DNA of 64,000 bases. Origin: Bacteroidales bacterium (GTDB lineage: Bacteria; Bacteroidota; Bacteroidia; Bacteroidales; UBA1402). Shown piece after piece: positions 1,962-52,841 of this stretch. The translations under genes were made by a program, and so were the position numbers. The notes beneath the pieces are model-generated. The model was not told the DNA's origin. It saw only the letters and a program-made list of their open reading frames with translations, and did no database searches. How positions within the stretch are numbered: position 1 is the first letter of the stretch; each line of letters starts with the position of its first letter. Location of the stretch: NCBI GenBank assembly GCA_017380635.1, contig JAFODP010000004.1, positions 22,828 through 86,827 on the forward strand, written 5' to 3'.

Positions 1962-1985
1962 CCTGCGTGAATAAAACGATTTATC

Positions 1986-2354: not shown

Positions 2355-2370
2355 TAATACCTTAAGGATT

Positions 2371-33031: not shown

Positions 33032-33086
33032 TTAAAGTGAAATGTCTATACTCCAACCTTGTTGCAGCAAGGTTCTGAGTTCTTTC

Positions 33087-33121
33087 AAATCCCTGTCATT
33101 TTGGCACGATGACAGGGATTT
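33087..33121. terminator. Bidirectional hairpin between the GIY-YIG gene (+) and the aminotransferase gene (-)
   Basis: A perfect 13-bp stem AAATCCCTGTCAT/ATGACAGGGATTT has a 9-nt loop. It has T-rich flanks on the plus strand and overlaps the aminotransferase stop codon. Confidence 0.65.
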
Positions 33122-34400: not shown

Positions 34401-34458
34401 ATTGTAAATTTTTAGAATTCCATCAAGCTATGTACTTCAACTTAATGAAGTATCATTT

Positions 34459-35984: not shown

Positions 35985-35992
35985 CAATATGC

Positions 35993-36970: not shown

Positions 36971-37026
36971 AATACTATACAATTGTCAATACTAATGATA
37001 CTATTAGTGCTTTATTTACTCTTAAT

Positions 37027-37824: not shown

Positions 37825-37871
37825 TGTGTAAATTATATCACATACATTAAAAAAACAAATTATTAAATAGT

Positions 37872-39059
37872 CTAGTTTTTTAAGCAGTCTTCGTATATTT
37901 TCTTATATTTTGCTACTATTACTTTTGGAGAGAACCTATCTTCAACATCTTTACGAATATAATCAGCATCATATACTCTCGTTAGAGCCAATTTTATGCC
38001 CTCTGCAATATCATTTGCCGAAAAACCATTACAGATAACTCCGTTCGCATCTGTTATCAATTCTTCAGTACCACTAACTGGTGTTACTATGGCAGGTTTA
38101 CCACATGCCATTGCTTCAATTGGTGCTTGCGAAAAAGCTTCTTTTAATGATGGCATAACAAAATAGTCAGAGGCAGAAAGATAACGTGACAAAATCGTGG
38201 AATCTCTAATAATGCCTGGTGTAATTACATTCGAATGTTCCTTAAAATAGGCATTATTCCCAATAGCTATAATTCTTATTTTATCATTGTCTATTATCTT
38301 TACGGCTTCAATTAATGTATCCAACCGTTTACGACTATCTGCAATATTTGCCGCCAAGAAAGACAAATAAATTTCTTTTCCACCAAGTCCTAATAAATCC
38401 CTAGATTCATTTCTGTCGAAAGCCGTAAATTTAGAACAATCAACACTATTAGATATAACTGAGAAATCGTGCCCAGCAAGAATTTTTGAATCTCCGAAAT
38501 TTCGTTTAAAATACTCTGAAAGAAGCACGAAATGCAATTTGTATGCTTTTTGAGTCATTTTCAACTTCAAATTTACATACTTCTGCTCTATCGAATTATG
38601 ATGAAGAATCTTATCCTGATAATGCCTTATTCCATAAAACATACCCTCATCATGTAAGGTCCATACTATAGGTTTTTTAACTCTCTGTAAAAATTTATTT
38701 TGATCAAAAAAATCATCAACCCAATGAAAATGGATAACATCGGCTTCTTTTACTAACGGATGTTTTGATAAATCAAACGGCGTCACAGGCCGAGTAAACG
38801 GAATATTATACCGAGCCGACATTTGAACTAATTTATCATATTCAAAGACATATAGGCCCAGTTTGCGCATCATAAAATGAAAGAGTCTTAGGAAATAGTT
38901 CCTTCTTTTAAAAACTCTAATCACAGACTCATCTGATTGCGATTTATAGAGCACAAGCATCTTACTATCTATACCATCAATATTTAATGCCTTATTAATC
39001 CTATACGCACACAATCCTGCTCCAGACGAATCGCTTGTACTTATATGTAATATTTTCAT
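37872..39059 (-). CDS. Glycosyltransferase family 4 (GT-B, GT1 clan)
   Basis: MKILHISTSDSSGAGL N-terminus. C-terminal E-x7-E region: PSLKEAFSQAPIEAMACGKPAIVTPVSGTEELI. Confidence 0.85.
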   Translation of the reverse strand: MKILHISTSDSSGAGLCAYRINKALNIDGIDSKMLVLYKSQSDESVIRVFKRRNYFLRLFHFMMRKLGLYVFEYDKLVQMSARYNIPFTRPVTPFDLSKHPLVKEADVIHFHWVDDFFDQNKFLQRVKKPIVWTLHDEGMFYGIRHYQDKILHHNSIEQKYVNLKLKMTQKAYKLHFVLLSEYFKRNFGDSKILAGHDFSVISNSVDCSKFTAFDRNESRDLLGLGGKEIYLSFLAANIADSRKRLDTLIEAVKIIDNDKIRIIAIGNNAYFKEHSNVITPGIIRDSTILSRYLSASDYFVMPSLKEAFSQAPIEAMACGKPAIVTPVSGTEELITDANGVICNGFSANDIAEGIKLALTRVYDADYIRKDVEDRFSPKVIVAKYKKIYEDCLKN

Positions 39060-39985
39060 TTGTTTATAAGACGTTTATAAAACCAACGTATACGCATCTT
39101 CCATAATTGCAGTGTCGAAGTGAAATTGCAAGAAAACTCCTTTCTTATGGTTCTATTGACCGTTACCATCTCAAAATTACATTCAATAGGGTCTTTTATC
39201 AATGTAGTATTGTATCTCGTCTCTTTTTTAGTAAAATTAGTACCACTTCCATCTGTACCCGTATTAAGAATTCTTGATTCAACCGGATAAATCGTATATT
39301 TATTTTGAAGAAAGGCCGCATAACACCAACGAATAGCCCACGACTTTATTTCGCCAAACATATATGCGTCCAACATAGTTGGCAAATCTTTTCCCCATTT
39401 CGAAAAAAGATATCGCTGTTTTATACTGTGCTTAAATTTACGATATCCATGAACGTCCCAATCAATTGTATTCCATCGGTCTAACCAAGTCGCCCAACCC
39501 CAACTACATGCTCTTCCAGAGATATAAACATCATGCTTATAACTCTTCAATGCATTCATCGGAAAAGTGTATGCACTAACTGACCATATAGAGGATTTAT
39601 CTTTGTAATAGTTCAATGCCCCATTCATATATCTTAGAAAATCACTAGCCACAACTAAGTCATCTTCTAATACGATTACAGAACCATATCTACTAATAAC
39701 CTCAGAAACACCATCAATTATAGATTTTGCAAGTCCTTTATTTTCTGCAGAATAAATAATATTGGTTTCTCTAAATCGAGTTTCTTGTTTAAATCTTTCA
39801 AGAAGTGTTCTTACAGCAAGAACAGATTCTTTTGACATGTCATTATCTTCCTTATATCCATCCGAATATATAAAAAGATCCGTGTATGAAGTTTCATTTA
39901 GATTATTAATACTATTTAAAACTTCTGCTGTTTTATCAGGTCTATTGTAAACAAACAAAAGAACTGGAGAGAAATTACCTTCCAC
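39056..39985 (-). CDS. Putative GT-A fold glycosyltransferase (GnT-I-like)
   Basis: VLLFVYNRPDKTAEVLNSI ... VIVLEDDLVV (EDD motif). The start appears to be GTG at 39985, overlapping the upstream stop by 11 nt. The 3' end overlaps the next ATG by 4 nt. Confidence 0.6.
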   Translation of the reverse strand: MEGNFSPVLLFVYNRPDKTAEVLNSINNLNETSYTDLFIYSDGYKEDNDMSKESVLAVRTLLERFKQETRFRETNIIYSAENKGLAKSIIDGVSEVISRYGSVIVLEDDLVVASDFLRYMNGALNYYKDKSSIWSVSAYTFPMNALKSYKHDVYISGRACSWGWATWLDRWNTIDWDVHGYRKFKHSIKQRYLFSKWGKDLPTMLDAYMFGEIKSWAIRWCYAAFLQNKYTIYPVESRILNTGTDGSGTNFTKKETRYNTTLIKDPIECNFEMVTVNRTIRKEFSCNFTSTLQLWKMRIRWFYKRLINK

Positions 39986-41012
39986 CTGTTAATAGTTTAA
40001 AAATTAATGGTAAATATTTCTTTATCCCCATAGAGACCAAAGAGGAGCTTACATAAATCACAATAGGAACACTAAAAAATACAAATAATGTATATACTAT
40101 GTTAGTTGAAGGAATACCTATTTGAGATTCAAAAATAGTAGCGGAAACCAATGATATAACCATAATATGAGATGCATATACCATAAATGTATGTTTCTCT
40201 ATCTCATGAACTTTATATTTAGTAAAATTTATTATGTCCAATGAGAAAAACAGACATATTGGAGAGAACAACTCATATAACAAATACGGAAACAGATTCC
40301 TTGCGGATACAAAATCTAGTGTTGGGTCAAAACACACTATCCTCATAATTTGAAGAGAAACAAACAAAAATGCAGCTACTCTAGCGATTTTCGGGGAGAC
40401 AGGCGAAGATAATAAACCCTTGTAATGACATGCAAGAAATGCACCGAGAAAATAATAAATAAAGCCCCATGAAAATATATCAAAGCAATGAATAATAGAA
40501 AGAACAATAATTATAATTATTGATATGTATTTTTTGTTTAGAATACACCAAATAATCGGAGAAAGTATTGATAGAATAATCAGATAGAATATATACCAAA
40601 ATGTGTACATAAACCTATAGTGAAAGATGCCATCTAATATCACATTTAAAGAAACACTTGGGCACTCTCCATTTAACAAATCCAAACTAAAATAAAACAG
40701 CATCCCTATTATATTCCAAACAAGATAAGGAATACCTAAAGAGAATAATTTCTTTTTAGCTAGCACAATGCAATCACTTATATTGTCAATTTTGTAAAAT
40801 GACAATATAGCTGATATAAAAAAAAATAGCGGAACTGCATTCCTAGAAACACATTGCCCCATATAATCAATAACTCGGAGCTGCATACTTTCAGTCACAT
40901 TATTCACAAAAGATGTCGAGTAATGAATATATACAACCATCAATGTTAATAGAGGCATTAAATGACTGATTTTTCTACTCAAAAAAACAGATACACCTTC
41001 TTTATTTGACAT
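39975..41012 (-). CDS. Acyltransferase family 3 membrane O-acyltransferase
   Basis: Roughly 10 predicted TM helices. The N-terminal LSRKISHLMPLLTLMVVYIHY pattern fits the family, and it sits in a CPS locus. Confidence 0.65.
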   Translation of the reverse strand: MSNKEGVSVFLSRKISHLMPLLTLMVVYIHYSTSFVNNVTESMQLRVIDYMGQCVSRNAVPLFFFISAILSFYKIDNISDCIVLAKKKLFSLGIPYLVWNIIGMLFYFSLDLLNGECPSVSLNVILDGIFHYRFMYTFWYIFYLIILSILSPIIWCILNKKYISIIIIIVLSIIHCFDIFSWGFIYYFLGAFLACHYKGLLSSPVSPKIARVAAFLFVSLQIMRIVCFDPTLDFVSARNLFPYLLYELFSPICLFFSLDIINFTKYKVHEIEKHTFMVYASHIMVISLVSATIFESQIGIPSTNIVYTLFVFFSVPIVIYVSSSLVSMGIKKYLPLIFKLLTGGR

Positions 41013-41073
41013 ATATTAATAGTTTAAATTCTATTCTTTTAAAGCTGAATCCTCTATAAATGAAAAATAAATT

Positions 41074-42303
41074 TCAAATATTTATATTTTCTTGTAGCAG
41101 AGTCCTTCGATCTGCTGATTTTATGAGAATGGGGCCAAAGAAGAAAAACATAAAACCAAGAGCCATAAACGTATCAAAACGATTTATGAACATAAAAACA
41201 ATCATTACAATATAATATAGTTTGTAATATTTTTTCATTAGATTTATTCTTATTCCATTCATTACAAATTTATAAAGATATTTTAAAAACATAACATATA
41301 CATATGCAAAAAGACCATATTTTTCCAAGAAATCCAATAATTGTGAATGTCCAGCTCGCCTATATTCACTACTAACATGACCAAATAATTGTCCACAAAT
41401 TGGGCTATCAAGCCAATTTAATATTGCATTATAATATATATGTATGCGGCTATTGTATTTATCTCCTGCCGAATATGTTCCAGATAGAAGTTCCTCTGCA
41501 TGCTTTGATAGTGCTGTTATATCATATTGTTCTCCAACACTCACTAGAATATCAAGAAAAACAAATCTAAGCAAGAATAGACATAGAAATAAGGTAAAAA
41601 TAGTAGTAATTTTGATTTTTTCAGGATTCACAAATAAGAGTATTAACATTGTACACACTAACAATATCCCAATCATGTACGCACCCAATACAATAGTTAT
41701 AAAAAACAAAACAATTGATGTTATATAAAATATCTTGATAAAAAATGATGACTTTTTAGAAATGAGACCTAATGGCAAGATAGCAAAGACCAACGAATAG
41801 ATATAACCATATCCACCAATATTCAACTCTCTATATAGACTACGCGTTTCAGTATAATAATCATCTCCTGTACTCGCCAATAAGCGTGATGCTGATGGAT
41901 ATTCAATATTACCTATTATAGTATATATAGCACTAATAATCATCAATATTACTATTATTGGTATTAATTCCTCAACAAGCTTCATATGATACGTATAAAA
42001 AATCAGTACGATAATCCATACAAAAGTTGGCATTTTATTAATCCCTAATAGCGTTGCAGTAGTGTCATGATGAAATGTCCCTAGTATATAATCAAGGAGA
42101 ACAATAAGGCATAACAGAAACAATGGATTAATAGCCATTTTTACCCAATGTTTGTCTATTACCAATGATGAAACAAGCCATATACAAAAGATACTTAAAA
42201 TAATTATCATTTGTTGATAAGAATACAGCGGTGTAAAAATAGCTATTGCAACAAACAACAACAACAAACACTGATTTACTCTATGTAGAAATGATATTTT
42301 CAT
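41074..42303 (-). CDS. wzy: O-antigen/capsule repeat-unit polymerase (Wzy-like, O-antigen ligase-like membrane protein)
   Basis: 409-aa polytopic membrane protein with a large loop near residue 270-330, very AT-rich, adjacent to wzx. No sequence motif verification is possible by eye. Confidence 0.6.
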   Translation of the reverse strand: MKISFLHRVNQCLLLLFVAIAIFTPLYSYQQMIIILSIFCIWLVSSLVIDKHWVKMAINPLFLLCLIVLLDYILGTFHHDTTATLLGINKMPTFVWIIVLIFYTYHMKLVEELIPIIVILMIISAIYTIIGNIEYPSASRLLASTGDDYYTETRSLYRELNIGGYGYIYSLVFAILPLGLISKKSSFFIKIFYITSIVLFFITIVLGAYMIGILLVCTMLILLFVNPEKIKITTIFTLFLCLFLLRFVFLDILVSVGEQYDITALSKHAEELLSGTYSAGDKYNSRIHIYYNAILNWLDSPICGQLFGHVSSEYRRAGHSQLLDFLEKYGLFAYVYVMFLKYLYKFVMNGIRINLMKKYYKLYYIVMIVFMFINRFDTFMALGFMFFFFGPILIKSADRRTLLQENINI

Positions 42304-43811
42304 CTTTTTAATCTTAATACCGCGCGCTCCGCTAAAGCAACAATAAACAATCGTTCCTTTTTAGTTAAGCCTGTAAAGAATACAATAACAGGAAAGGTAA
42401 TAACCGATAAACAGATACAAAATAAATCCCCAAAGAAAAAGGGCAATACAAATACAGGACATGCTAAAATAGTCACAAGCAGTGACGGATAATACGAGCC
42501 CTTAATCAATATCTTATTATCAAAATCATGATCAATACGAAGTATTATTTGTCTTACCACAACTGCAATAATGGAAAAAATAATATATACAAGCAACAAT
42601 GAATATGCTTGTGCACCCATTTTTAAGACAGCGTATCCTACAACAATAGAACATAATAAGACTGTATTAGTAATTACCTGGTATTTCTTAATATTTCCAC
42701 TTGCAAAAACATACTCTGCTATGCCTAAATTAAAAGAATCTATCAACGAATTAACCACCATTAATCTAACAAATAAAACAGAATATGGAGGAACTTCTCC
42801 TAACCATAATGTTAATAGATATTCCGGACATAATAATAGTGGTAGAGAAATCCAAAACATAAACATATACGATAACTTTGACGTCATGGCCATAAGTGTA
42901 TGGCATCTTTTCATATCGCCCTTGGAATAATTCTTTGTTATTTGAGGAGCAATTGGCTTTGAAATATTTTGAACAAACATCAAGATAAAAGAATGGAGTT
43001 GATTAGCTATTCCCAATGCTGTATTCATTATTGTATTAAAAAATGCATTTACTAATAGTGCAGCACCTTGAGACTTCCCAACTTGCACTATTGCCCCATA
43101 CCCTACCCATATAGAAAATCCTAATACTTCACGATATAGACTCCAATCTGTTACAATTTTTGGCGTAATTATGTCTTTAAATTTAAATCTACAATATAAA
43201 AAGTATATCACTGCCGGCATAACTATCGAAAATGCTGATATAAGAGCATAGGCAATCACTCGATTGGTATCTATATAAAAAAGTCCATAACAAAGCAATA
43301 ATTTAATTGGATATATAACTATATCCGATAAACAAAATACACCAAATCGTTCTTTGGCCATGAGTAACCCGTTAAAAGGAACTCCAATAAAAGACAATGC
43401 TGAAGAAACTAATGATGTATTAAAAATTTTTACAGCTATATTAATATCTCCATCATAATTCACATAATTATATACATACCAATCCCCAATTGTCAATCCA
43501 AATAATAAAACAACCACAGCACAAGCCACATGGACAATCAGACTTACATTAAAGACAATATTTACTCTATTCATATCCCCTTTTCCAATGGCTGTTGCTA
43601 TAAAACGATTCGACGTACTTAGCATCATTGTATTTATTATTGAAATAAATGTAATAATACTACCTACTACAGAATACAATCCAAAGTCAGATATACCAAG
43701 CGCTTTTAATGCAATACGCGTGATAAACATTCCACAAATAGCAGTGACACCTAATCGCAGATATAAAAAAAAAGAATTAAGTATTATTGCTTTATTAGTA
43801 TTCTCTTTCAT
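42300..43811 (-). CDS. wzx: Polysaccharide flippase (Wzx, MOP/MATE-like superfamily)
   Basis: ATG at 43811 (MKENTNKAIILNSFFLYLR...); the listed start at 43820 is TTG. About 12-14 TM helices, and an ATGA overlap with wzy. Confidence 0.75.
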   Translation of the reverse strand: MKENTNKAIILNSFFLYLRLGVTAICGMFITRIALKALGISDFGLYSVVGSIITFISIINTMMLSTSNRFIATAIGKGDMNRVNIVFNVSLIVHVACAVVVLLFGLTIGDWYVYNYVNYDGDINIAVKIFNTSLVSSALSFIGVPFNGLLMAKERFGVFCLSDIVIYPIKLLLCYGLFYIDTNRVIAYALISAFSIVMPAVIYFLYCRFKFKDIITPKIVTDWSLYREVLGFSIWVGYGAIVQVGKSQGAALLVNAFFNTIMNTALGIANQLHSFILMFVQNISKPIAPQITKNYSKGDMKRCHTLMAMTSKLSYMFMFWISLPLLLCPEYLLTLWLGEVPPYSVLFVRLMVVNSLIDSFNLGIAEYVFASGNIKKYQVITNTVLLCSIVVGYAVLKMGAQAYSLLLVYIIFSIIAVVVRQIILRIDHDFDNKILIKGSYYPSLLVTILACPVFVLPFFFGDLFCICLSVITFPVIVFFTGLTKKERLFIVALAERAVLRLKR

Positions 43812-43838
43812 CAACTGCAAAAATTCAAATCTTTATAA

Positions 43839-44774
43839 CTATTCTACCTTCGACAAATCCATCAAAGAGCCCCAGCGAAGCATTCTATCATACTGATAGA
43901 CACTACTAGCAGAGTTTAAACCCGATGGCGTAAAAGTAAATTCACCAAAATACAGTTGCCCCTTAACCTCATAAAAATCTAATCGAACAAACGGTATTTG
44001 TTCTGCTAATATTCTACAAATTTCTATCATTTGTAACAAACACTTAGGACGAGGTATCATGGGACCCTGATTATCAAATCTATGTAATTTTGTATTTTCA
44101 ATACAATTCCAATCCATATCATATAAACAATACTCAACGTTATGACTACCAAGTTCTCTATTGAAAAACACAGCACACGCTTCTGGTTTTCCATGGAACA
44201 CATAAAACTTATAATCTATAAGCGAAGTAGAAAAACCCGAATCTTCCTCCAATAACTCTTCTGCTATAATACATGGCTTTATTTTTAGATAGTGATATTC
44301 TCCAGCTTCATACCCATACGGCGTGTGCAAGTATTGATTAAACTTTTCTTTAATACTCCTTTGATCAATTAGCGACTTATCTTTCACTACCATAATTTCT
44401 CCACAGCCATGATTGGTTTTAAGAACAAATTTATTAGGCAACTTAGAGAAATCTATATCATCAGCATTTGTCCATCTCCCATATAGTTTAACCAAAATTG
44501 TTGACAATCCTTTTTCTTCTATATATTCGCGAACAGCATACTTATCCGCAAGTATCGGCCACATATACTGAGCCATCTTTGAATTAAACTGAATCCATCT
44601 TTGTTTTTCATTCATTTCTTTTGGATTATTCCAATTCATAGGTCGGCCAAACGACAATTTATAAAGGACCTCAACCCATTTCTTAGGATTGTTATGCATA
44701 AGGTACTGCCAATAACGCCTACGTAACAAAACAAATGGATAAAGAATTATCCTAAACACATTCTTAATCTTCAT
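43839..44774 (-). CDS. ATP-grasp fold amidoligase family protein (TupA-like)
   Basis: KYAVREYIEEKGLSTILVKLYGRWTNADDIDFSKLPNKFVLKTNHGCG and VRLDFYEVKGQLYFGEFTFTP are typical of the TupA-like ATP-grasp proteins seen in CPS loci. Confidence 0.75.
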   Translation of the reverse strand: MKIKNVFRIILYPFVLLRRRYWQYLMHNNPKKWVEVLYKLSFGRPMNWNNPKEMNEKQRWIQFNSKMAQYMWPILADKYAVREYIEEKGLSTILVKLYGRWTNADDIDFSKLPNKFVLKTNHGCGEIMVVKDKSLIDQRSIKEKFNQYLHTPYGYEAGEYHYLKIKPCIIAEELLEEDSGFSTSLIDYKFYVFHGKPEACAVFFNRELGSHNVEYCLYDMDWNCIENTKLHRFDNQGPMIPRPKCLLQMIEICRILAEQIPFVRLDFYEVKGQLYFGEFTFTPSGLNSASSVYQYDRMLRWGSLMDLSKVE

Positions 44775-44839
44775 TTTATATCAATTATTATCGTTCACTA
44801 AAAATCATTCTCGATAATCTGGACATCTATACTCAAATC

Positions 44840-45523
44840 CTATAACTTGTTTACCGACCTATGCATTTCATAATCGCCAATATGATCTCTGGTAAATTCA
44901 GCTTGCCATAAATAGACATCCATATTTTGAACAAAATCGCTCCACTTAACCATTGGAATATAACTGCATAACCCTCTATATACGTTATCCCCGAGGTGAC
45001 AGTCCATAGCATTCTTTTCCTTTTGATTGAACATATTCTCACTCAAAATAGTAAATAAAGCATCCGTATGGAGAAGCCTGCAACCAGAAGGACAACATGC
45101 TTTGTACTCAATCATATATGAATAACTTCCAGATTGGTCAGGAAGAACAACTGCCAATATTGCATTTGTGTGGCTGACACGACCATTGCGATTTGACTCA
45201 TAAATAGAATAGTATATCTCCCAAGGAATCCATTGAGACTTATCTAATCTATGTAGCTCTTTCATATTAGGTGATATGAGCACAATAGTAACAGATGTCG
45301 GACGAATCTTATCTTTCAGATGACTGTAGATATAATCATCAGAATAATTTGATAAATCCTCATCCCCTCCTTCACCCATATATGTATGACCATTCTCATC
45401 AAGTTTCATAGCAAGTTCATCGACATAATCCCTTACTTTAGTCTGTTCATACCATGGAGTGCGCGCTAAACGTTGAACACTAGTATCAGCATACTTATAT
45501 GATACGAAAACATTTCTACCCAT
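44840..45523 (-). CDS. TIR-like domain protein (DUF1863 / ThsB-like)
   Basis: The N-terminal strand NVFVSYKYAD, then VTIVLISPNM and SQWIPWEIYYSI (candidate catalytic Glu102), fit the MTH538/ThsB-type TIR-like pattern. A Cys-rich C-terminal extension (CCPSGC) follows. No signal peptide. Confidence 0.6.
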   Translation of the reverse strand: MGRNVFVSYKYADTSVQRLARTPWYEQTKVRDYVDELAMKLDENGHTYMGEGGDEDLSNYSDDYIYSHLKDKIRPTSVTIVLISPNMKELHRLDKSQWIPWEIYYSIYESNRNGRVSHTNAILAVVLPDQSGSYSYMIEYKACCPSGCRLLHTDALFTILSENMFNQKEKNAMDCHLGDNVYRGLCSYIPMVKWSDFVQNMDVYLWQAEFTRDHIGDYEMHRSVNKL

Positions 45524-45534
45524 AAGTTAACGAA

Positions 45535-46044
45535 TCAACAATTACAACATATAAAAAGCCATCCATTAGTAATGATTGTGATGAAAACTATTATAACAAG
45601 CATAAAAACATACGTCGGCCATACAGATTTATTAAATAGCATGCAACCAGTCTTTACATAGCCGAGTTTTTTCACTTCGGCATTTTTATTCAAAGTTTTG
45701 AAAACAAAAATTGCATCTTCTTTTGTCTTTATAGTAGAATCATCTTCATCACAGAGTTCAATATTTTTCAAAATATTAATAAATCTCTGTTCACGATTAC
45801 GAAGTCCCCTTTCTATATTTAAATAATATGCATCTATATTCCAAAATACCAATATTGGGATAACTGCCAACAATACCCAAGAACCCAAATCTGCGATATT
45901 GAACGCAATAGCTAATAAAGCTGCGACAATTGTAATCAACCAAGTCTTTGCATTGGCACTATTGGTGGCCATACGAGCAATATTGTCCTGCATCATCTGG
46001 AGATACAAGCGATCATCTTCTGAACAATTAATTTCCCCCATCAT
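45535..46044 (-). CDS. Small 3-TM membrane protein (2-TM hairpin + C-terminal TM; SLATT-like topology)
   Basis: An N-terminal amphipathic helix (DRLYLQMMQDNIARMATNS) is followed by two adjacent TM helices (WLITIVAALLAIAFNI and WVLLAVIPILVFWNI), then YYLNIERGLRNREQRF, a charged linker, and a final TM helix (YVFMLVIIVFITIITNGWLFI). It lies 11 nt upstream of the TIR-like gene. Confidence 0.5.
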   Translation of the reverse strand: MMGEINCSEDDRLYLQMMQDNIARMATNSANAKTWLITIVAALLAIAFNIADLGSWVLLAVIPILVFWNIDAYYLNIERGLRNREQRFINILKNIELCDEDDSTIKTKEDAIFVFKTLNKNAEVKKLGYVKTGCMLFNKSVWPTYVFMLVIIVFITIITNGWLFICCNC

Positions 46045-46074
46045 AATTATATATACAACTTTATAATACTTATT

Positions 46075-46503
46075 CTACAACAACTTACTATACTTTCTTT
46101 TTATCAACACCGACTGCTTCAGGCAGGCTTTGAGTCGAGAGAACAAGTCATTATGTATGGTGCCTAAATTTTCTACCGAGGAATCCATGTTTTCAAGATG
46201 CCTTAGCGAATATTCATCCACCTGTTCGCCATACACGAATGTTGGTAAAGGAAAAGCAAAGTGTTCGGTAACTGATTCTTTCGGCATAAAGACAAAAGCA
46301 TTGACAGCGCGCTCAGGAAGGTTGATACAGCCCGATTGTATCGCCACATCCGACGGAATACGATCTTTTGACGTTGGCAATGAGGCCATCAATATTTGTT
46401 CTTCTATATGCTTCAATACTATAAAATACTTTTTCTTGGGAGCCGCACCGCTTTTGAAAAAGAATGGTGTAAAGCTCAGTAATTGACCTTCGGTGTAATT
46501 CAT
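46075..46503 (-). CDS. Hypothetical 142-aa protein, candidate toxin partner of the Panacea-domain protein
   Basis: It lies 11 nt downstream of the DUF4065-like gene. It has no TM helices or known motif. KKKYFIVLKHIEEQILMASLPTSKD is faintly reminiscent of the MazF/PemK SH3-like core; this is speculative. Confidence 0.4.
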   Translation of the reverse strand: MNYTEGQLLSFTPFFFKSGAAPKKKYFIVLKHIEEQILMASLPTSKDRIPSDVAIQSGCINLPERAVNAFVFMPKESVTEHFAFPLPTFVYGEQVDEYSLRHLENMDSSVENLGTIHNDLFSRLKACLKQSVLIKRKYSKLL

Positions 46504-46514
46504 GGTGGACGATT

Positions 46515-47093
46515 TTAGATTTGCATTTGGTTGGCAAACTGGCGATATGCCAAGGCTTCTTCATAATATTCTCGGGCATCGGGACATAGCTGTTTACCCA
46601 TATCTATAACGATGCCGGAACTATTGGCCCGTTTGGCGTCGAAATCTTCTATCAAGCCATGGTCTTGAGCCGTTTGTTGCCATAGTGAGCCTTTTTTATG
46701 CGTTTCGCTGATGAGTTGCTCGGAGTTCATATTGCCATATTTTTGCATCACGGCAGCCATCACGGCCAGTTCTGCATCCGAAAATTCATCTTCTTCGAAA
46801 TCTCTTTTGGCATAGACTTTCACTCCCTTGCTTGTATTTTTAACGTCAATATATTCGTCCAAAATAACCGGCCCATCGGAAAGTTCCTCAAAAACATCTA
46901 CCGACACCGGCCCCAAGCGCCAAACTGAAAAAGGTATAGCCAAAAAGGGAATGTTATATTGCTGTACCATGCGTTCTTCCATGAGGAACAAAAGTTTCAA
47001 GACTTCTGTCTTATAGGGATATTTGGCATGTTGAGCAATATAAAGAATGGCATTTCCCAATTTTTTCTTGCTCGTTTCTGAAAATCTACACAT
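46515..47093 (-). CDS. Panacea (DUF4065 / SocA / GepA-like) domain protein, putative antitoxin
   Basis: KTEVLKLLFLMEERMVQQYNIPFLAIPFSVWRLGPVSVDVFEEL ... LSDAELAVMAAVMQKYGNMNSEQLISETHK matches the KLqKLLY...g.pl....f.aw..GPV core plus the later S...L...tH motif, as I remember this family. Confidence 0.6.
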   Translation of the reverse strand: MCRFSETSKKKLGNAILYIAQHAKYPYKTEVLKLLFLMEERMVQQYNIPFLAIPFSVWRLGPVSVDVFEELSDGPVILDEYIDVKNTSKGVKVYAKRDFEEDEFSDAELAVMAAVMQKYGNMNSEQLISETHKKGSLWQQTAQDHGLIEDFDAKRANSSGIVIDMGKQLCPDAREYYEEALAYRQFANQMQI

Positions 47094-47129
47094 AAATTTG
47101 GTTTATATTTTTCATGGATTAGTATTACT

Positions 47130-48359
47130 TTATCTCCTAATATGCAACTCAAAGGCTTCGGGATGCGCCTCGCAGAACGCTTTGGCGTCGTTTACGACGA
47201 GGGCGAGATAGCCACCGCCGCCGGCGCCGGGCATTTTCCATGCGAGCACGTCGGGCATAGCGCTGTATTGGGCAATGGTGGCTGCCACATAGCTGTTATC
47301 TTGCTCAGGATGACCAATGTAAGTAGGCTTAATCATGCCGGGAAACATGGCCACTTGGGCCTCGAAAGAATCCTTGTAAGCCGCAGCGAAGGCTGGCAAA
47401 TCGTGAGCGATGATAGCATTCCAACAAGCATCGGCTGCATCGGCAAGGGCCTTTACCTTGGCGGGCGTAATATCTTTTTCTTCCACCACCGAGCAACCGG
47501 GTTTGCGGGGTTCCATGGGCAGCATCACCAGATGTTCTTCCAAAAAGCGAAGCGTCATTTCGTCGTTGGTGCTTTCTATCTTGGCGGGCCAGAAGTTGTT
47601 GTTGTAATAATGTCTGCAAAGACCCGGCACACAAATACCGATGGCATCCTGGGCACCGGAGATATGTCCGTCCGTGCGCTCGGGATTGTTTTCGAAACAG
47701 AATACCAAACGGGCCAACATTTCGGGATCCATCTTGGGCAGCTTCATGGGCCAAATTTTCTGTATCATACTGCGAGTGCTGGTACTCAGGCCACAACGGT
47801 CGCGCACTTCGAAGGTGGGTTCCAAAGAAATGGTGATGGCCCAGCCGGGATGATGCATGCTTACATAAGGTTGGTCTATCCAAGTACCTGCCAAGTCCAG
47901 ACGCGTGGGAATACCCTTGCTATCGTCGGCTTTGTGGTCGTCTTGCTGCATGGCGGCCTTGAGCGAGCTGGAGCTGCGAGCCTGCAAACCTTCATGCGGG
48001 GTGCGTTGCAATTCGATGTACTCTATGCCTCTTTCTTCGCAGAGTTTGCGTTTGGTTTCGCTTCCACCTTCGGCATTCACCACGAAAATATCGGGTTGCA
48101 CCAAATCGAGCGTAGGGATAAAGTCGATAACGCCGCTACCTTCGTTGATATAGGCTTCCTTTACGGCTTTGATATTGCGCACCATAAACAAACGTTCCTC
48201 CTGAGGAAACATAGGTTTACGATGTTTGTATTCCAAATAAGTAGCGTCCGAACCGATGCCCACATACAAATCGCCATACTGCGAAGCTTGCTTGAAAAAC
48301 TCCACATGACCGCTGTGCAACAGGTCGTAACATCCACTGACAAATACTTTCTTAGCCAT
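47130..48359 (-). CDS. Fusion protein: cytidylyltransferase-like nucleotidyltransferase (TagD/RfaE-II type) + GHMP-kinase-like C-terminal domain
   Basis: The N-terminus KVFVSGCYDLLHSGHVEFFKQASQYGDLYVGIGSD carries the HxGH motif. The C-terminus has AWKMPGAGGGGYLALV (GHMP motif 3). A degenerate motif-2 region (RCGLSTSTRS) is also present. Confidence 0.7.
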   Translation of the reverse strand: MAKKVFVSGCYDLLHSGHVEFFKQASQYGDLYVGIGSDATYLEYKHRKPMFPQEERLFMVRNIKAVKEAYINEGSGVIDFIPTLDLVQPDIFVVNAEGGSETKRKLCEERGIEYIELQRTPHEGLQARSSSSLKAAMQQDDHKADDSKGIPTRLDLAGTWIDQPYVSMHHPGWAITISLEPTFEVRDRCGLSTSTRSMIQKIWPMKLPKMDPEMLARLVFCFENNPERTDGHISGAQDAIGICVPGLCRHYYNNNFWPAKIESTNDEMTLRFLEEHLVMLPMEPRKPGCSVVEEKDITPAKVKALADAADACWNAIIAHDLPAFAAAYKDSFEAQVAMFPGMIKPTYIGHPEQDNSYVAATIAQYSAMPDVLAWKMPGAGGGGYLALVVNDAKAFCEAHPEAFELHIRR

Positions 48360-48371
48360 ACTGCTTATTTG

Positions 48372-50822
48372 CTATTTTTTCTTGTTCTTGCTTTCGTAGC
48401 CATAGCCGTATCCGTAGCCATAACCATAGCCGTATCCGTAGCCATAACCATAGCCGTATCCGTAGCCATAACCATAGCCGTAACGACTCTTGCGTTTAGC
48501 ATAATCCACATCGTTGATAACGGTGGCCAACTTGTTGAATTTCTTCTGGTTCTGGAGCACGTTGATATAGGCGAAAGCCGCCTTGGGCGTATATTCCGAA
48601 CGACAAACATAAATACACATATCGGCCACGCGGCCTATGATAGCCGTATCGGCCACCATACCGATGGGCGCGGTGTCGAGCAGAATGTAGTCGTATTGGG
48701 TTTTCAGTTTTTCCATCATCACTTCCAAGGCGTTGCGGGCCACCAATTCCGTAGGGTTGGGAGGCACCGTACCACCGGGCAGAATGTGCAAGTTTTCACT
48801 CAATTCGGAAGTAAAAATAAAATCTTCTAAGCGGGTGCCTTCGGGATCGTTCAGGTAGTTGGAAACCCCATATTGTTTCTTGTTGAAACCGAAGGCCTTG
48901 TTCAAACCAGGTTTACGGATATCGGCACCGATCACCAAAGTTTTCTTGCCCAAATAAGCCAAACTGACAGCCAAGTTGGCGGTAACAAAACTCTTACCTT
49001 CACCAGGTTGCGAAGAAGTGACCAAAATAACTTGCTGCGTCTTGTCCAACATAAAGAGCACCTGGGTACGCAGGGCGCGGAAAGATTCTTCCATCATGTC
49101 GTTCTTGTTTTCGCGCACCAACACCGAACCAATCACCGGCGTTTGCTTGCGGCCGCTGGGCAATTCTGACAGCACGGGCACAGATGTGATTCTTTCCACG
49201 TCGGCACGGTCGTCAATCTTGAATTTGAGCAAGTCGCGCAAGTAGAGAATTGCAATGGGAGCACACAAACCCAACATCAAAGCCACCAGCATAATCATCA
49301 TGGAATTGGGTTCTACAGGGGCATTATCGGCCATAGCCTCAGCAATGATACGACCGTTGTTGGCAGTGGCAGAGAGCGTGATAGCGTTTTCTTCGCGCTT
49401 CTGCAACAAAGTGATATAGAGCGCCGCCTTGATTTCCTGCTGACGAGCGATAGACAGATATTCCTTTTCTTTTTCGGGAGCCTTGCTGATACGGCTTTGG
49501 AAAGAACCTGATTCTTTTTCGATGGCTTGTTTGCGAATCTGCAAACCATTCAACACGCTGGCCACGGTAGCTTCCACTGTATTGTACATGGTTTGGATAG
49601 AAGAAGTAACCGATACCACCACGGGGTTGCTTTCGGTAGAGGTGAGCAACAGTCGCTTGCGTTCAATCACCAAAGCATTGTATTGATCGATAACGGTAGA
49701 CAAATCGACATCCTTCAGGCCCACATTAGAAGGAATGATTTCACCTATATGTTCAGCCTTTGCCACGTAGTCGCGCAAGAATTCCACTAGAGAAATCTGG
49801 GTATTTACTTCGGTAAATTGTTGTTGATAAATCGAATTTTCCTGCAAAGCCAATTGGGCTTCCGATTCGATATCCGTCAGGCCGGAACGTTGTTTGAAGC
49901 TGGCCACTTCGCGGTCGGTGCTTTCCAGTTCTTCACCAATCACCAAAATACGTTCGTCGATAAAATCGGCAGTCTTTTGTGCCACGATATTCTTTTCGTC
50001 GTTGGCTTCTTTGTTGTAGAGTTCCACCAATTTGTTGATAAAATCTACCCCGCGTTTTTTCACGCTGTTCTTGATGGAGATATTGGCAATGGTAGTAAGC
50101 TTAGAAGTAGCTGAAACAGAGAGATTCCTGGAATAGCCACGTGCCACCGCAATAGGCGAAGCGATGTTGGTAATCATCTTGAAATTTTCGCTGATAGCCA
50201 CTTCCTGTTGAGGCTTGGTGAGCGTAATCACTCCATATTCGGAAGGAATGACGGCAGGCAGGCTGTCGAAAGCATAGCTAAACTCAAATTCCTGTTCGCC
50301 AATTTCGTAGCTCAGAAGCACATCCAATGTTCCGTTGGGACGGATAAGGCTTTCCAAACGAGCACCTTTGGGGAAATGGGCAGCATCTTCGGGCGTAATG
50401 AAAACATTCACCGGTTCGTTCTGATACAAAGGAATATCATAACCGAAAGATGATTTTTTGTAGGAATTGATATAGAGTTTCAAATCGGTCACCACATTCT
50501 TTACCAGCGTGCGGCTTTTGAGAATTTCCAACTCGTTTTCGAAAGAAGAAGTCATGGAGAAAGAACCCATGTTTTGCAAAGCCATCATGGCATCGGACAT
50601 TTGCGCACTGCGACGACCGTCTTTTTCCGTAATCAGCACCGAGGCAGAAGCATTGTACTGCGGCGTTTGGAAACGGGTATACACATAGGCAGCACTCACG
50701 CAAAGCACCACAGAAATGACAAACCAATACCAATGGCCCAAACATTTAAAGAACCATTCCACCAGATTGATACCGCCTTCTTCTTGAGCATCGGGGTTGT
50801 TATATACTTTGTTTTCTTCCAT
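48372..50822 (-). CDS. wzc: Polysaccharide co-polymerase / BY-tyrosine autokinase (Wzc/GumC-like) with a (YG)n C-terminal tail
   Basis: N-terminal Wzz-like domain with two TM segments and a coiled coil. Kinase Walker A: VTSSQPGEGKSFVTANLA. Walker A'/B: VLLDTAPIG. C-terminus: RY(GY)14ESKNKKK. Confidence 0.9.
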   Translation of the reverse strand: MEENKVYNNPDAQEEGGINLVEWFFKCLGHWYWFVISVVLCVSAAYVYTRFQTPQYNASASVLITEKDGRRSAQMSDAMMALQNMGSFSMTSSFENELEILKSRTLVKNVVTDLKLYINSYKKSSFGYDIPLYQNEPVNVFITPEDAAHFPKGARLESLIRPNGTLDVLLSYEIGEQEFEFSYAFDSLPAVIPSEYGVITLTKPQQEVAISENFKMITNIASPIAVARGYSRNLSVSATSKLTTIANISIKNSVKKRGVDFINKLVELYNKEANDEKNIVAQKTADFIDERILVIGEELESTDREVASFKQRSGLTDIESEAQLALQENSIYQQQFTEVNTQISLVEFLRDYVAKAEHIGEIIPSNVGLKDVDLSTVIDQYNALVIERKRLLLTSTESNPVVVSVTSSIQTMYNTVEATVASVLNGLQIRKQAIEKESGSFQSRISKAPEKEKEYLSIARQQEIKAALYITLLQKREENAITLSATANNGRIIAEAMADNAPVEPNSMMIMLVALMLGLCAPIAILYLRDLLKFKIDDRADVERITSVPVLSELPSGRKQTPVIGSVLVRENKNDMMEESFRALRTQVLFMLDKTQQVILVTSSQPGEGKSFVTANLAVSLAYLGKKTLVIGADIRKPGLNKAFGFNKKQYGVSNYLNDPEGTRLEDFIFTSELSENLHILPGGTVPPNPTELVARNALEVMMEKLKTQYDYILLDTAPIGMVADTAIIGRVADMCIYVCRSEYTPKAAFAYINVLQNQKKFNKLATVINDVDYAKRKSRYGYGYGYGYGYGYGYGYGYGYGYGYGYGYESKNKKK
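48396..48482. repeat. 24-bp tandem repeat (~3.6 copies) encoding the Wzc (YG)14Y tail
   Basis: GTAGCCATAACCATAGCCGTATCC repeats head to tail from 48396 to 48482. On the minus strand every codon pair is TAY GGN. Confidence 0.9.
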
Positions 50823-50830
50823 AATCTCTT

Positions 50831-51616
50831 TTACATTAAGATGTTAACCAAAAGTGAGGCAATAGACACCAACATAGAACCTGCGGTAAACCACAACGAA
50901 GTGGCGCTACCGATATCAGAGTTGCGGGCTTTCACCTTGTTGGGCGTCACATAGACCACGTCATTCTGTTGCAGATAATAGTAATCGGAGTTGATAATGT
51001 TGGCATCGTTCAGATTGAGGCTCACCACCATGCGTTCGCCATTGGCGTCTTCGCGAATCAGTTTCACGTCGTTGCGCACGCCCCAAACGGTCATATCGCC
51101 GGCCAAGGCAAGCGCTTCGAAGATGTTCACTTTTTCGTTGCTGACGGTGAAAGTTCCCGGATGGGCCACTTCGCCCAACACCGAGATTTTGTAATTAGCC
51201 ATACGCACCGTCACAATGGGCACTTCGTTGATATAAGGCTTCAAGCCTTCGCGAATCATGTTTTCGGCTTCCGTTTTGGTAAGACCGCCCACTTTCAGAC
51301 GACCCAAGACAGGAAAATCGATGCTACCTTCGTTGTCAACCAAATAAGTCATCAACATCGGGGATGAATATGTACTCGTACTTTTAATACTATAAGCCGT
51401 CTGGATAGTCAGGTTGAAAGGCAAAGCCACTTCCGGATCGGTACAGTTTACCGTAATGGTCAGCAGATCTTTCGGCATGATTTTGGCGTCGTACAGCGGT
51501 TTTTGCTCCAAAGTTACGGCGTCCACGTTCTGCATGTAAGGTACGCTCTTGTAAGAGGTACAGCTAGCCAAGCAAGCCACCAGCAAGATTGGCAAGATTC
51601 GTTTCAGCATTTTCAT
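50831..51616 (-). CDS. wza: Polysaccharide export outer-membrane protein (Wza/BexD/CtrA family)
   Basis: Lipoprotein-type signal ILLVACLASCTSY. PES motif region: LVDNEGSIDFPVLGRLKVGGLTKTEAENMIREGL. Soluble-ligand-binding repeats are also present. Confidence 0.88.
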   Translation of the reverse strand: MKMLKRILPILLVACLASCTSYKSVPYMQNVDAVTLEQKPLYDAKIMPKDLLTITVNCTDPEVALPFNLTIQTAYSIKSTSTYSSPMLMTYLVDNEGSIDFPVLGRLKVGGLTKTEAENMIREGLKPYINEVPIVTVRMANYKISVLGEVAHPGTFTVSNEKVNIFEALALAGDMTVWGVRNDVKLIREDANGERMVVSLNLNDANIINSDYYYLQQNDVVYVTPNKVKARNSDIGSATSLWFTAGSMLVSIASLLVNILM

Positions 51617-51630
51617 TTCGTATCGTATTA

Positions 51631-52086
51631 TTATTTCTTAAATCTAGCGAAAAAACCCTTCTTATGATGGCTTCTGTGATGGCTTCCATGACGAGAAGTC
51701 TGATAATCGTCGTCCTGGCCATTGTACATATCTTCGAAACTAAGCTTGTGCGTCACCATTTCGTAGATGCTTCCCCAATCGGGCAAACCACCGATGTTGC
51801 GGTCGTCGATAAAGAGATCGGCTTTGAGCTTGCGCGAAAAATGATTGTTCTTTTCGGCTTCTTCTTCGGGATAATCTCGGTTGACGGCGTAAAATTCCAG
51901 GCCACGTTCCTTGCACCATTGCACCGCCTCTTCGAGCAGTTCGCCTTCGCGTACCGACCACAATATCAGTTTATGACGATCTTCCTGCAAACGTTTGAGT
52001 GTTGCCACGGCAAAAGGAATTTCTTTACCGATGGCGGGATAAGCGTGTTCTACGATGGTGCCATCAAAATCGACTGCTATTCTCAT
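51631..52086 (-). CDS. Small HAD-superfamily-like hydrolase with a His-rich basic tail
   Basis: MRIAVDFDGTIV (DxDGT motif I), LILWSVR (motif II-like), FIDDRN (motif IV-like). C-terminus: SRHGSHHRSHHKKGFFARFKK. Confidence 0.55.
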   Translation of the reverse strand: MRIAVDFDGTIVEHAYPAIGKEIPFAVATLKRLQEDRHKLILWSVREGELLEEAVQWCKERGLEFYAVNRDYPEEEAEKNNHFSRKLKADLFIDDRNIGGLPDWGSIYEMVTHKLSFEDMYNGQDDDYQTSRHGSHHRSHHKKGFFARFKK

Positions 52087-52103
52087 GTTGATGTTGTATT
52101 AAA

Positions 52104-52685
52104 TTAGTCTTCTATTACTTCGAGCCAGTCGGCTTGTACTTCAAAACTGGCACTGAGATAACCGGGAACATCCACCAGGAAACATTTGTTGCGTCGTCCT
52201 TGGGGGCGCGCCAGAATGCCCACCACCCCATTGCTGGGATTGTCTTTGTCGGCATGCACACGCACTTTGCTTCCGGCTTTGATTTGTCTGAATTCCTGCG
52301 GTTGATAATAATGTTTGAGGCTGAGCTGCGTCATGGCAAGCATGAAGTTTTCCATTTCGCGAAAGGGCACCACCATCAGCTGATGATAACCGCTGCACTT
52401 GAATTTGAACTGCACCTGCCCGAACACAGATTCCACAAAATCGGCAATCTGTTGGCGACTGCCTTTGGCAAAAAACAAATCGCCCAAGACCGGCTGCAAA
52501 GATTTTCGCAGTTTACCTCCTCGCTGACAGAGTTGTTCCTGCATGGGTCGAAACACCGCTATGCCTTTTTGTTGCATCGTATCCAACAAAGTCTGCACTT
52601 GTTCGGAATGATACTGATTGCGTTTGGCAAAGCGCATCACATACCAAGCAACTAGTTCGTCCTGCATGCGAATTTGGTCTGACAT
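52104..52685 (-). CDS. UpxY-family (NusG/RfaH-like) capsule-locus transcription antiterminator
   Basis: ATG at 52685 (MSDQIRMQDELVAWYVMRFAKRN...). It has an NGN-like N-terminus and a KOW-like C-terminus (KAGSKVRVHADKDNPSNGVVGIL). It is the first gene of the CPS locus, as is typical for Bacteroidales. Confidence 0.8.
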   Translation of the reverse strand: MSDQIRMQDELVAWYVMRFAKRNQYHSEQVQTLLDTMQQKGIAVFRPMQEQLCQRGGKLRKSLQPVLGDLFFAKGSRQQIADFVESVFGQVQFKFKCSGYHQLMVVPFREMENFMLAMTQLSLKHYYQPQEFRQIKAGSKVRVHADKDNPSNGVVGILARPQGRRNKCFLVDVPGYLSASFEVQADWLEVIED

Positions 52686-52841
52686 CGAGCCCTTTTGTTG
52701 ATTTTTGGGTATAGTTATGAATCCTCCGAATAGCAATAAAACGCTATAACAGAGCAATTTACAAACATTATTAATCTTTTTTCGTCTTGTTTTGCCTGCT
52801 GATTCGGATTTTCCACCCGAAAGAAAACACTACAAGTCGAG

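Follow-up and report, generated by a model that had tools for sequence, protein, structure and literature searches.

Two adjacent genes, thsF and thsB, very probably form a type V Thoeris anti-phage system in an uncultured gut Bacteroidales. They lie in a 64,000-nucleotide stretch of DNA, the whole of which is referred to here as the window. This kind of system is already catalogued, type V Thoeris being the same as PDC-M50, and the pair is one more member. The architecture was listed as candidate PDC-M50 in PADLOC-DB v2.0.0 (2023), and was later validated and given the name Thoeris type V, with an especially strong enrichment in Bacteroidota (Yirmiya et al., Dec 2025, bioRxiv 10.64898/2025.12.03.692087). 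In the literature library searched, PDC-M50 is mentioned by no paper. The window system is minimal, having a single ThsF and a single ThsB. The original prediction described a ThsB-type TIR coupled to a small membrane effector in a compact Thoeris-like module that lacks SIR2, SLOG and Macro domains, and we find a bona fide ThsB, a ThsF homologue and wide co-occurrence of the two.

The features of the locus are collected in the table below. The gene thsF is upstream of thsB in the same orientation. The arrangement first described, two co-directional genes 11 nt apart, was confirmed from the ORFs and the sequence, with the strand corrected to minus. In related loci the spacers range from 0 to 25 nt, also on the same strand. 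The two ORFs are evidently not due to chance, since thsF has 164 close homologues and a family profile with 4,036 cluster representatives, and the thsB product matches a solved structure over its full length.

Table. Features of the thsF-thsB locus, with positions counted from the first nucleotide of the window.
Feature	Position	Strand	Description
thsF	45535..46044	-	Predicted three-TM membrane effector, 169 aa; PADLOC PDC-M50A, the ThsF of type V Thoeris
ThsF N-terminal amphipathic helix, residues 13-34	45943..46008	-	Motif YLQMMQxNIxRMAxNSANAKxW, conserved in alignment A1
ThsF TM1-TM2 hairpin, residues 32-73	45826..45951	-	Hydropathy and AlphaFold2 helices 8-46 and 53-91
ThsF juxtamembrane motif, residues 70-84	45793..45837	-	D-x2-YL-x2-ER-x-LRNRE; Arg-rich cytoplasmic extension of TM2
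ThsF third, C-terminal TM helix, residues 139-167	45544..45630	-	Hydropathy; AlphaFold2 helix 141-158; P142 and Y144 conserved
Operon junction (thsF stop to thsB start)	45524..45534	-	Spacer of 11 nt
thsB	44840..45523	-	ThsB-type TIR, 227 aa; predicted sensor of infection and synthase of an NAD+-derived signal
ThsB P100-W101-E102 codons	45218..45226	-	E102 is the predicted catalytic glutamate; its GAG codon is at 45218-45220

By homology, the 227-aa protein is a ThsB TIR enzyme. Its N-terminus reads MGRNVFVSYKYAD and an internal stretch reads SQWIPWEIYYSI (translation of the ORF), and both conserved motifs, FxSYxY and WxxWE, are present. It matches the PFAM family “ThsB_TIR” (PF08937; E 6.2e-8, 33.4 bits, cut-off 21.2) and, over its full length, the PADLOC ThsB model PDLC00428 (7.8e-72). 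The PDB entry 9vyl_A, reported as “Putative cyclic ADP-D-ribose synthase TIR1”, aligns along the full length including the C-terminal half, with about 51% identity (E 1.1e-60); a literature search on 9VYL found no paper. The protein is also 47% identical, again full length (E 2e-66), to the TIRs of cluster 2742576382, which Yirmiya et al. list in their Table S1 as “DUF2270 - Type V” (bioRxiv 10.64898/2025.12.03.692087). Among 26 aligned family members, W98, W101 and E102 are at least 95% conserved, and in the ThsB of B. cereus MSX-D12 the residue aligned to Glu102 is the glutamate of the WVRYE (WxxYE) motif. A ThsB-type TIR-like domain with a catalytic Glu had been proposed from the sequence, and the PF08937 and PADLOC ThsB matches, 9vyl and the conserved E102 all agree with it.

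By homology, the 169-aa protein is a three-TM effector of the ThsF family. All four PADLOC PDC-M50A models match it (4.2e-19, 1.4e-17, 2e-12 and 2.4e-11). Both parts of PDC-M50 are represented in the pair: the adjoining ThsB matches PDC-M50B, though weakly (1.8e-3), and is better fitted by the PADLOC ThsB model. A direct link to a validated effector comes from locus L079, where the TIR is identical in 251 of 251 residues to the validated type V ThsB of B. thuringiensis DAR 81934. The gene 13 nt downstream of this TIR encodes the protein P0285, which we take as ThsF because of that position next to a TIR 100% identical to the validated ThsB. The ThsF family profile aligns with P0285 over its full length (hhalign 99.9%, E 3.4e-31), and the window ThsF finds it directly by BLASTP (E 4e-18). 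The second validated system, from Bacillus sp. 1NLA3E, is represented by relatives whose TIRs are 71% identical to its ThsB, and the effectors adjoining these TIRs are also homologous to the window ThsF. PDC-M50A is matched alike by the validated-type ThsF proteins, by the 1NLA3E-like effectors and by the window ThsF.

The PFAM family DUF2270 (PF10028), the label by which ThsF has been defined, was uninformative as a mark of membership. The window ThsF reaches only 13.6 bits (E 0.052, cut-off 25), weak matches were found in 5 of 95 ThsF relatives, and the validated ThsF (P0285) does not match in the PFAM release used; close relatives of it fail as well. Since the validated protein also fails it, this family is unable to separate members from non-members. 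The domain 8xMP (PF24838), with an E value of 0.012 on the validated ThsF, gave no lead, and the literature on “8xMP” is unrelated.

In terms of membrane topology, hydropathy places two adjacent hydrophobic helices in residues 32-73 of ThsF and a third at 139-167, with a charged linker in residues 70-140 (13 K+R and 11 D+E). In the AlphaFold2 monomer model (pLDDT 83, pTM 0.75; helices 8-46, 53-91 and 141-158), the amphipathic helix at the N-terminus continues as TM1, a tight hairpin leads to TM2, which extends into the cytoplasm, and TM3 is at the C-terminus. Hydropathy and model are thus in agreement with the layout described at first, an amphipathic helix, a 2-TM hairpin, a charged linker and a third C-terminal TM helix.

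Residues 13-34 of ThsF contain invariant or near-invariant columns in alignment A1. In A2, an alignment of 75 distant ThsF relatives, R23 and K32 are invariant and Q18, I21, M24, N27, S28 and W34 are at least 90% conserved. D70 and E77 are invariant in A2, and R78, R81 and R83 in A1. The juxtamembrane motif formed by residues 70-84 is a candidate contributor to a ligand pocket. The Arg-rich R78/R81/R83 motif would be compatible with a ThsF ring with positive pockets, which is not the same as proof of one.

The family profile finds the 4,036 representatives (approximately 4,000, clustered at 50% identity) at E ≤ 1e-3, and the family has no solved structure. A Foldseek search of the ThsF model against the PDB found nothing (best E 3.1), and neither did the family profile against PDB sequences (best E 2.6).

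The pair, by its recurrence in related genomes, is an operon conserved in evolution. A metagenome scan for ThsF homologues was built on alignment A1, with counts covering intact homologues. A TIR gene lies on the same strand within 40 nt of thsF in 39 of 45 metagenome loci, or in 24 of 27 when counted per distinct ThsF sequence. The six exceptions are three contig ends and three loci with a shortened TIR ORF 73-250 nt away. On plasmids, the TIR gene either adjoins thsF or lies no more than about 0.5 kb away; these plasmids come from Bacteroidota, Bacillota, Cyanobacteriota, Pseudomonadota and Actinomycetota, and also from a haloarchaeon. Co-occurrence of the two families outside this genome, proposed as a check, thus holds in the metagenome loci and in plasmids of five phyla and one archaeon. 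Related loci with sufficient flanks have two or three TIR genes around thsF in 21 of 32 cases, and a single TIR in the 11 others. Rathayibacter (L013) and Citricoccus (L020) encode fusions in which a complete ThsF-like three-TM module is attached C-terminally to a HIT domain, with TIR genes flanking. These fusions show the ThsF module to be a portable part of Thoeris effectors.

Type V Thoeris has been validated in B. thuringiensis DAR 81934 and in Bacillus sp. 1NLA3E, with two genes each, and the phage-defence and 3'cADPR evidence for this type comes from Bacillus systems only. It protects B. subtilis, and its ThsB produces 3'cADPR. Added 3'cADPR is toxic to cells with the B. thuringiensis system, but in one validated type V system no toxicity was triggered by it. 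In the published model, ThsF forms a ring of seven protomers that has positively charged pockets between them (all bioRxiv 10.64898/2025.12.03.692087). By analogy with the experiments on these relatives, phage infection would activate ThsB in the window system, with its C-terminal Cys-containing half (approximately residues 130-227) probably acting as the phage sensor. ThsB would then use Glu102 to make from NAD+ one of the cyclic ADP-ribose isomers, 3'cADPR being the most likely, and this signal would bind an oligomeric ThsF ring in the inner membrane. The likely binding site is in positive pockets between protomers, which may be formed by the conserved N-terminal helix and the juxtamembrane motif after TM2. 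ThsF would finally damage the membrane, so that the infected cell is arrested or killed before release of phage progeny.

In another reading, the roles are reversed or a diffusible signal is absent: the TIR itself would deplete NAD+ as the effector, like those of CBASS, Pycsar or SPARTA, and the membrane protein would be a sensor, an anchor or a direct protein partner. NADase effectors are common among bacterial TIRs, and the validated system in which 3'cADPR is non-toxic leaves room for other activation modes. Still, we regard this as quite unlikely. The window TIR is a full-length member of the ThsB family, 51% identical to a TIR1 protein. TIR1 is also the name of a B. dafuensis protein in Ofir et al., whose partner is a separate SIR2-SLOG ThsA (only the shared name links 9vyl to it). 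Moreover, two or three different TIRs commonly flank one ThsF, a pattern known from Thoeris in which a single effector is fed by several sensors, and the ThsF module is also found fused to a HIT hydrolase effector.

It is very unlikely that the pair is what is left, decaying or inert, of a larger Thoeris locus with several TIRs, kept only as hitch-hiking cargo. Most related loci have more TIRs than the one found here, but both window ORFs are full length when compared to relatives, their catalytic and family-invariant residues are intact, single-TIR loci are found elsewhere, and the validated Bacillus systems have two genes as well. As many relatives have two or three TIRs per ThsF, the one-TIR version in the window may be a reduced form of type V Thoeris with a narrow phage range.

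A SLATT-TIR module resembling Thoeris type VII, in which a divergent SLATT domain would polymerise on binding canonical cADPR, is highly improbable. Operons of TIR and SLATT genes are known, with validation as type VII, and in the window a small protein with a 2-TM hairpin adjoins a TIR. However, the membrane protein has three TM helices, not two, and its family is PADLOC PDC-M50A/ThsF; the cluster that contains the window TIR carries the label type V rather than type VII. SLATT PFAM matches are absent from ThsF (E ≤ 1), from 20 close relatives (E ≤ 10) and from 75 distant relatives (E ≤ 0.01). A SLATT assignment of the membrane protein, which the original prediction had offered as an alternative, is not supported, given these absent profile matches, with none in the protein itself and 0 of 95 in its family. 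Finally, that the pair belongs to the capsule pathway and not to immunity, for example as a membrane protein partnered with an enzyme that resembles nucleoside 2-deoxyribosyltransferases or modifies sugar nucleotides, is extremely improbable: the pair is inside a polysaccharide operon, as are four related cassettes, but the ThsB assignment is strong, the nearest neighbours are a Panacea toxin-antitoxin pair and not sugar enzymes, and the same cassette is also found outside polysaccharide context, on plasmids and beside integrases, restriction-modification, OLD/UvrD and phage genes.

Compared with the validated Bacillus examples, the window system has the same operon layout of two genes, one for a ThsB TIR and one for a small three-TM effector that is homologous to validated ThsF, and its TIR falls in a cluster listed under type V. 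Some variations were found. The order here is effector then TIR, whereas the Bacillus systems have the TIR first, and the window TIR cluster differs from those of both validated systems. The window ThsF is about 41% identical to the validated one over the N-terminal half only. It is also longer (169 aa vs 135-141 aa): its cytoplasmic linker carries an acidic insertion of about 30 residues, and the third TM helix is followed by a tail rich in Cys (CCNC). The window system is, in addition, embedded in a capsule operon.

As for other Thoeris types, the TIR resembles type I ThsB (9vyl) along its full length, but its partner is a membrane protein and not a SIR2-SLOG NADase. Types VII (TIR with the SLATT effector ThsH) and II (TIR with a TM-Macro effector) have in common with the window a TIR signal generator and a membrane-disrupting effector. 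The window effector belongs to a different family, with no detectable SLATT or Macro domain, and the signal is probably different. A PFAM scan of the membrane protein and of four flanking genes showed no SIR2-SLOG (type I) or TM-Macro (type II) domain. The early statement that the pair differs from types I and II is therefore true, but the novelty it implied is outdated by PDC-M50 (2023) and type V. In Thoeris type XI (PADLOC ThsC, a HIT-family effector), the likeness is through the ThsF-like module joined to HIT in L013 and L020; the window ThsF has no HIT or other enzymatic domain.

In the window, the pair is placed between wza, wzc and cytidylyltransferase genes on one side and ATP-grasp, flippase, polymerase and glycosyltransferase genes on the other. 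The window cassette and its closest relatives, together with toxin-antitoxin modules, are located inside Bacteroidales capsule loci. The pair appears to be co-transcribed with the capsule operon. Between 44600 and 47300, the Bacteroidetes TAnnTTTG promoter motif was not found, and sigma-70-like and terminator-like matches showed no excess over shuffled expectation. An empty-site version of the capsule locus was not found either, as the contigs with an identical cytidylyltransferase all share the same arrangement.

This result contributes a clean and minimal type V Thoeris example from uncultured gut Bacteroidales. It also reveals an annotation gap, since the large ThsF family is missed by PFAM and NCBIfam and is detected only by PADLOC PDC-M50A or purpose-built models. 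The placement in a capsule operon beside a toxin-antitoxin pair gives a testable clue to how capsule switching and intracellular defence are coordinated in Bacteroidales. A tentative extension, doubtful at this stage, is that type V Thoeris cassettes and toxin-antitoxin modules are recurrent cargo in the 5' portion of capsular-polysaccharide operons in these bacteria, downstream of an UpxY/NusG-like antiterminator or of wza-wzc and co-transcribed with the operon. If true, intracellular immunity would be turned on and off together with a given capsule type, and phage resistance at the surface and by abortive infection would be coupled in one, possibly phase-variable, transcription unit.

By homology, the thsF-thsB pair is assigned to type V Thoeris, equal to the PADLOC system PDC-M50 and hence an already known kind. 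Types V to XI were defined by Yirmiya et al. in Dec 2025 (bioRxiv 10.64898/2025.12.03.692087). According to this preprint, type V consists of ThsB and ThsF ("DUF2270"), with three membrane-spanning helices in ThsF, and Bacteroidota are "especially enriched" for it. As originally predicted, the two ORFs are co-directional with a gap of 11 nt, with the correction that both lie on the minus strand, and the quoted peptide motifs were found. Several metagenome assemblies from one study carry identical copies of the locus. Proteins encoded in the flanks of the window share clusters, at 90% identity or more, with proteins of "Bacteroidales bacterium" MAGs.

Positions of the features in the window and in loci with ThsF homologues
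Feature	Sequence	Position	Strand	Remark
Polysaccharide locus with cassette	window	33000-52800
wza	window	50831-51616	minus
wzc	window	48372-50822	minus
(Tyr-Gly) tail of Wzc-like kinase	window	48395-48484
cytidylyltransferase	window	47130-48359	minus
Panacea/SocA antitoxin, 192 aa	window	46515-47093	minus	PF13274, 6.4e-16
142-aa partner of antitoxin	window	46075-46503	minus	11 nt downstream of antitoxin gene
Probable toxin-antitoxin pair	window	46075-47093		directly upstream of thsF
thsF, 169-aa ORF	window	45535..46044	minus
Cys-rich tail of ThsF	window	45535-45555
thsB, 227-aa ORF	window	44840..45523	minus
Glu102 codon, GAG	window	45218-45220
Cassette stretch of low GC	window	35000-46500		GC 0.28-0.36 vs 0.45-0.50 in both flanks
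HIT-ThsF fusion	L013 (Rathayibacter plasmid)	2030-2941
HIT-ThsF fusion	L020 (Citricoccus)	1933-2829
Separate ThsF-like ORF	L014 (Natrinema)	2516-2947
AGS_C protein, 153 aa	L012 (L. plantarum plasmid)	1950-2411		PF18134, 2.4e-24
Nmad2, nucleotide kinase domain, radical SAM genes	L009 (P. distasonis plasmid)	4986-7589		Nmad2: PF18753, 9e-60
Gene with weak 8xMP match, 166 aa	L087	3733-4233		two genes upstream of ThsF
ThsF, nSTAND-type NTPase, TIR_2	L089	6001-11655

The identity of the TIR protein as ThsB is supported by both Pfam (ThsB_TIR, PF08937; 33.4 bits, cut-off 21.2) and the PADLOC model PDLC00428, which matches it end to end (7.8e-72). Residues 1-223 also match the solved structure 9vyl (1.1e-60, ~51% identity), titled "Putative cyclic ADP-D-ribose synthase TIR1" and, going by the shared name TIR1 only, presumably that of B. 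dafuensis. There, the type I TIR1 together with the SIR2-SLOG ThsA gives phage-specific defence (Ofir et al.). Among 26 aligned family members, conservation is at least 95% at F6, S8, Y9, W98, W101 and E102, and the counterpart of E102 in B. cereus MSX-D12 ThsB is the Glu of its WVRYE motif.

As for the membrane protein, the predicted arrangement of hairpin, charged linker and C-terminal helix was seen both by hydropathy, with two adjoining hydrophobic helices in residues 32-73, a charged 70-residue linker and a third helix at 139-167, and in an AlphaFold2 model built from 20 homologues (pLDDT 83, pTM 0.75), which places helices at 8-46, 53-91 and 141-158. There is no significant Pfam or NCBIfam match to window ThsF, SLATT families included; within Pfam, only PF10028 (DUF2270) left a trace, with E 0.052 and 13.6 bits where the cut-off is 25. 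None of its 164 close homologues carries a Pfam domain. A Pfam scan of 95 family members gave DUF2270 in 5, every one weak, and SLATT in 0, and the SLATT identity first offered as an option was therefore dropped. Four models of the PADLOC family PDC-M50A do match (4e-19 to 2e-11).

The ThsF family is large: a library clustered at 50% identity contains 4,036 representatives that match at E<=1e-3. In 75 distant members, R23, K32, D70 and E77 never vary, and conservation is at least 90% at Q18, I21, M24, N27, S28, W34, Y73, L74 and Y144. Two motifs are defined by these residues, one in the N-terminal helix and a juxtamembrane one, D-x2-YL-x2-E(R). No PDB relatives were found by structure or sequence. 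Window ThsF and its nearest relatives have an acidic insertion of ~30 residues (~92-125) in the cytoplasmic linker, and their C-termini form a Cys-rich tail (CCNC, CNCR, CPC) that the Bacillus-type ThsF proteins (135-141 aa) lack.

The core reading of a Thoeris-like module is supported by homology to validated type V components. The window TIR aligns over its full length (47% identity, E 2e-66) with the TIRs of cluster 2742576382, labelled "DUF2270 - Type V" in Table S1 of the preprint. In locus L079 (GCA_900108905.1), the TIR is identical (251/251) to the validated B. thuringiensis ThsB, so the 141-aa protein P0285, whose gene lies 13 nt downstream, is ThsF. The window family profile covers the full length of P0285 in hhalign (probability 99.9%, E 3.4e-31), and BLASTP of window ThsF gives E 4e-18 with 41% identity across 79 residues. 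The same kinship holds for Exiguobacterium and Thalassobacillus effectors that follow TIRs 71% identical to the second validated ThsB, that of Bacillus sp. 1NLA3E. It also holds for effectors on plasmids of Terribacillus and C. botulinum, where the preceding TIRs are B. thuringiensis-like.

PDC-M50A matches all these validated-type effectors (1e-31 to 1e-51) as well as the window protein, and on this sequence evidence PDC-M50A, ThsF and the window membrane protein form a single family. None of these effectors, P0285 included, reaches PF10028 in hmmscan against current Pfam, and the "DUF2270" label therefore cannot be reproduced as a membership criterion. The better test is homology to validated ThsF, which the window protein shows. 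P0285 also has a weak full-length match to PF24838 ("8xMP, octameric membrane protein family"; E 0.012), and a weak 8xMP match occurs in locus L087; a distant relationship is possible.

The pairing also extends beyond the source genome, as the co-occurrence analysis shows. A family-alignment search of metagenomes gave 52 loci, 45 with an intact ThsF homologue, and 39 of these 45 have a same-strand TIR gene within 40 nt. The other six are either at contig ends (3) or have a shortened TIR ORF 73-250 nt downstream (3). Among loci with sufficient flanking sequence, one TIR gene lies within 1.2 kb of ThsF in 11, two in 9 and three in 12, the Thoeris pattern of several sensors for one effector. On plasmids, TIR genes are adjacent or within ~0.5 kb in Parabacteroides (Bacteroidota), Ligilactobacillus, Lactiplantibacillus, Vibrio, Nostoc, Rathayibacter and the archaeon Natrinema.

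In L013 and L020 the entire three-TM module is fused C-terminally to a HIT hydrolase domain (ThsC by PADLOC), with TIR genes flanking the fusion. In Natrinema the module stands as an ORF of its own, with a TIR gene on one side and a HIT gene on the other. Fused in one setting and free-standing in the other, ThsF thus behaves as a portable Thoeris effector module. In L089, a close relative, ThsF precedes a 1,321-aa nSTAND-type NTPase rather than ThsB, followed by a 358-aa TIR_2 protein, possibly a STAND-sensor variant. In L012, the TIR gene and the ThsF homologue are separated by the gene of an AGS_C protein; AGS_C is a sensor domain linked to nucleotide cyclases and SMODS. Directly downstream of ThsF-ThsB in L009 is a nucleotide-modification-like module, which may be a neighbouring, separate defence system.

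For the window pair itself, the evidence is that both proteins are homologous to validated components, with catalytic and invariant residues intact, that the operon is conserved and that the membrane protein has three TM helices; the mechanism is carried over from Bacillus experiments. By analogy, phage infection would switch on ThsB, which would convert NAD+ to a cADPR isomer via E102. An oligomeric ThsF ring would then take up the signal at basic pockets, and the membrane would be breached, aborting infection. In the preprint's model, ThsF forms a heptameric ring whose inter-protomer pockets carry positive charge; in the window protein, the pocket may be built by the conserved helix at the N-terminus together with the Arg-rich segment that follows TM2 (R78, R81, R83). 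The signal would most likely be 3'cADPR, since the window TIR is closest to the TIR1 protein, which shares its name with the type I TIR1 of B. dafuensis. For type V, the preprint reports 3'cADPR as the signal of the B. thuringiensis DAR 81934 system, and one validated system that did not respond to added 3'cADPR.

Along the minus strand, the order is wza, wzc, cytidylyltransferase, antitoxin, 142-aa partner, thsF and thsB, followed by TupA ATP-grasp, flippase, polymerase, acyltransferase, glycosyltransferase, sugar transferase and aminotransferase genes. All share one strand, gaps near the cassette are 11-65 nt, and no promoter-like or terminator-like signals beyond chance were found around it; co-transcription with the capsule operon is therefore likely. 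The local GC dip fits horizontally exchanged, serotype-specific capsule genes with defence cargo. The 142-aa protein has no match in Pfam, NCBIfam or PADLOC and is a candidate new Panacea-associated toxin. The C-terminus of the Wzc-like tyrosine kinase is a highly regular run of (Tyr-Gly) x ~13. A tandem repeat built on a hexanucleotide (24-nt period, 100% matches) encodes this tail, and slippage could change its length.

The closest relatives of window ThsF (63-79% identity) lie in four other polysaccharide loci: after an MNT/HepT pair, just downstream of a NusG/UpxY-like gene (L090); after MNT/HepT, YafQ and KilA-N genes (L087); among glycosyltransferases and epimerases (L089); and adjoining AbiH in a Muribaculaceae MAG (L005). 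The cassettes, that of the window included, usually lie near the 5' end of their polysaccharide loci, and toxin-antitoxin or Abi genes (MNT/HepT, YafQ, AbiH, Panacea) adjoin them. More distant relatives occur in other settings, namely on plasmids and next to integrase or conjugation genes, and a capsule-pathway function of the pair was therefore rejected. The newness of the system is low, and what interest remains comes from the capsule-operon setting and from the gap in ThsF annotation.
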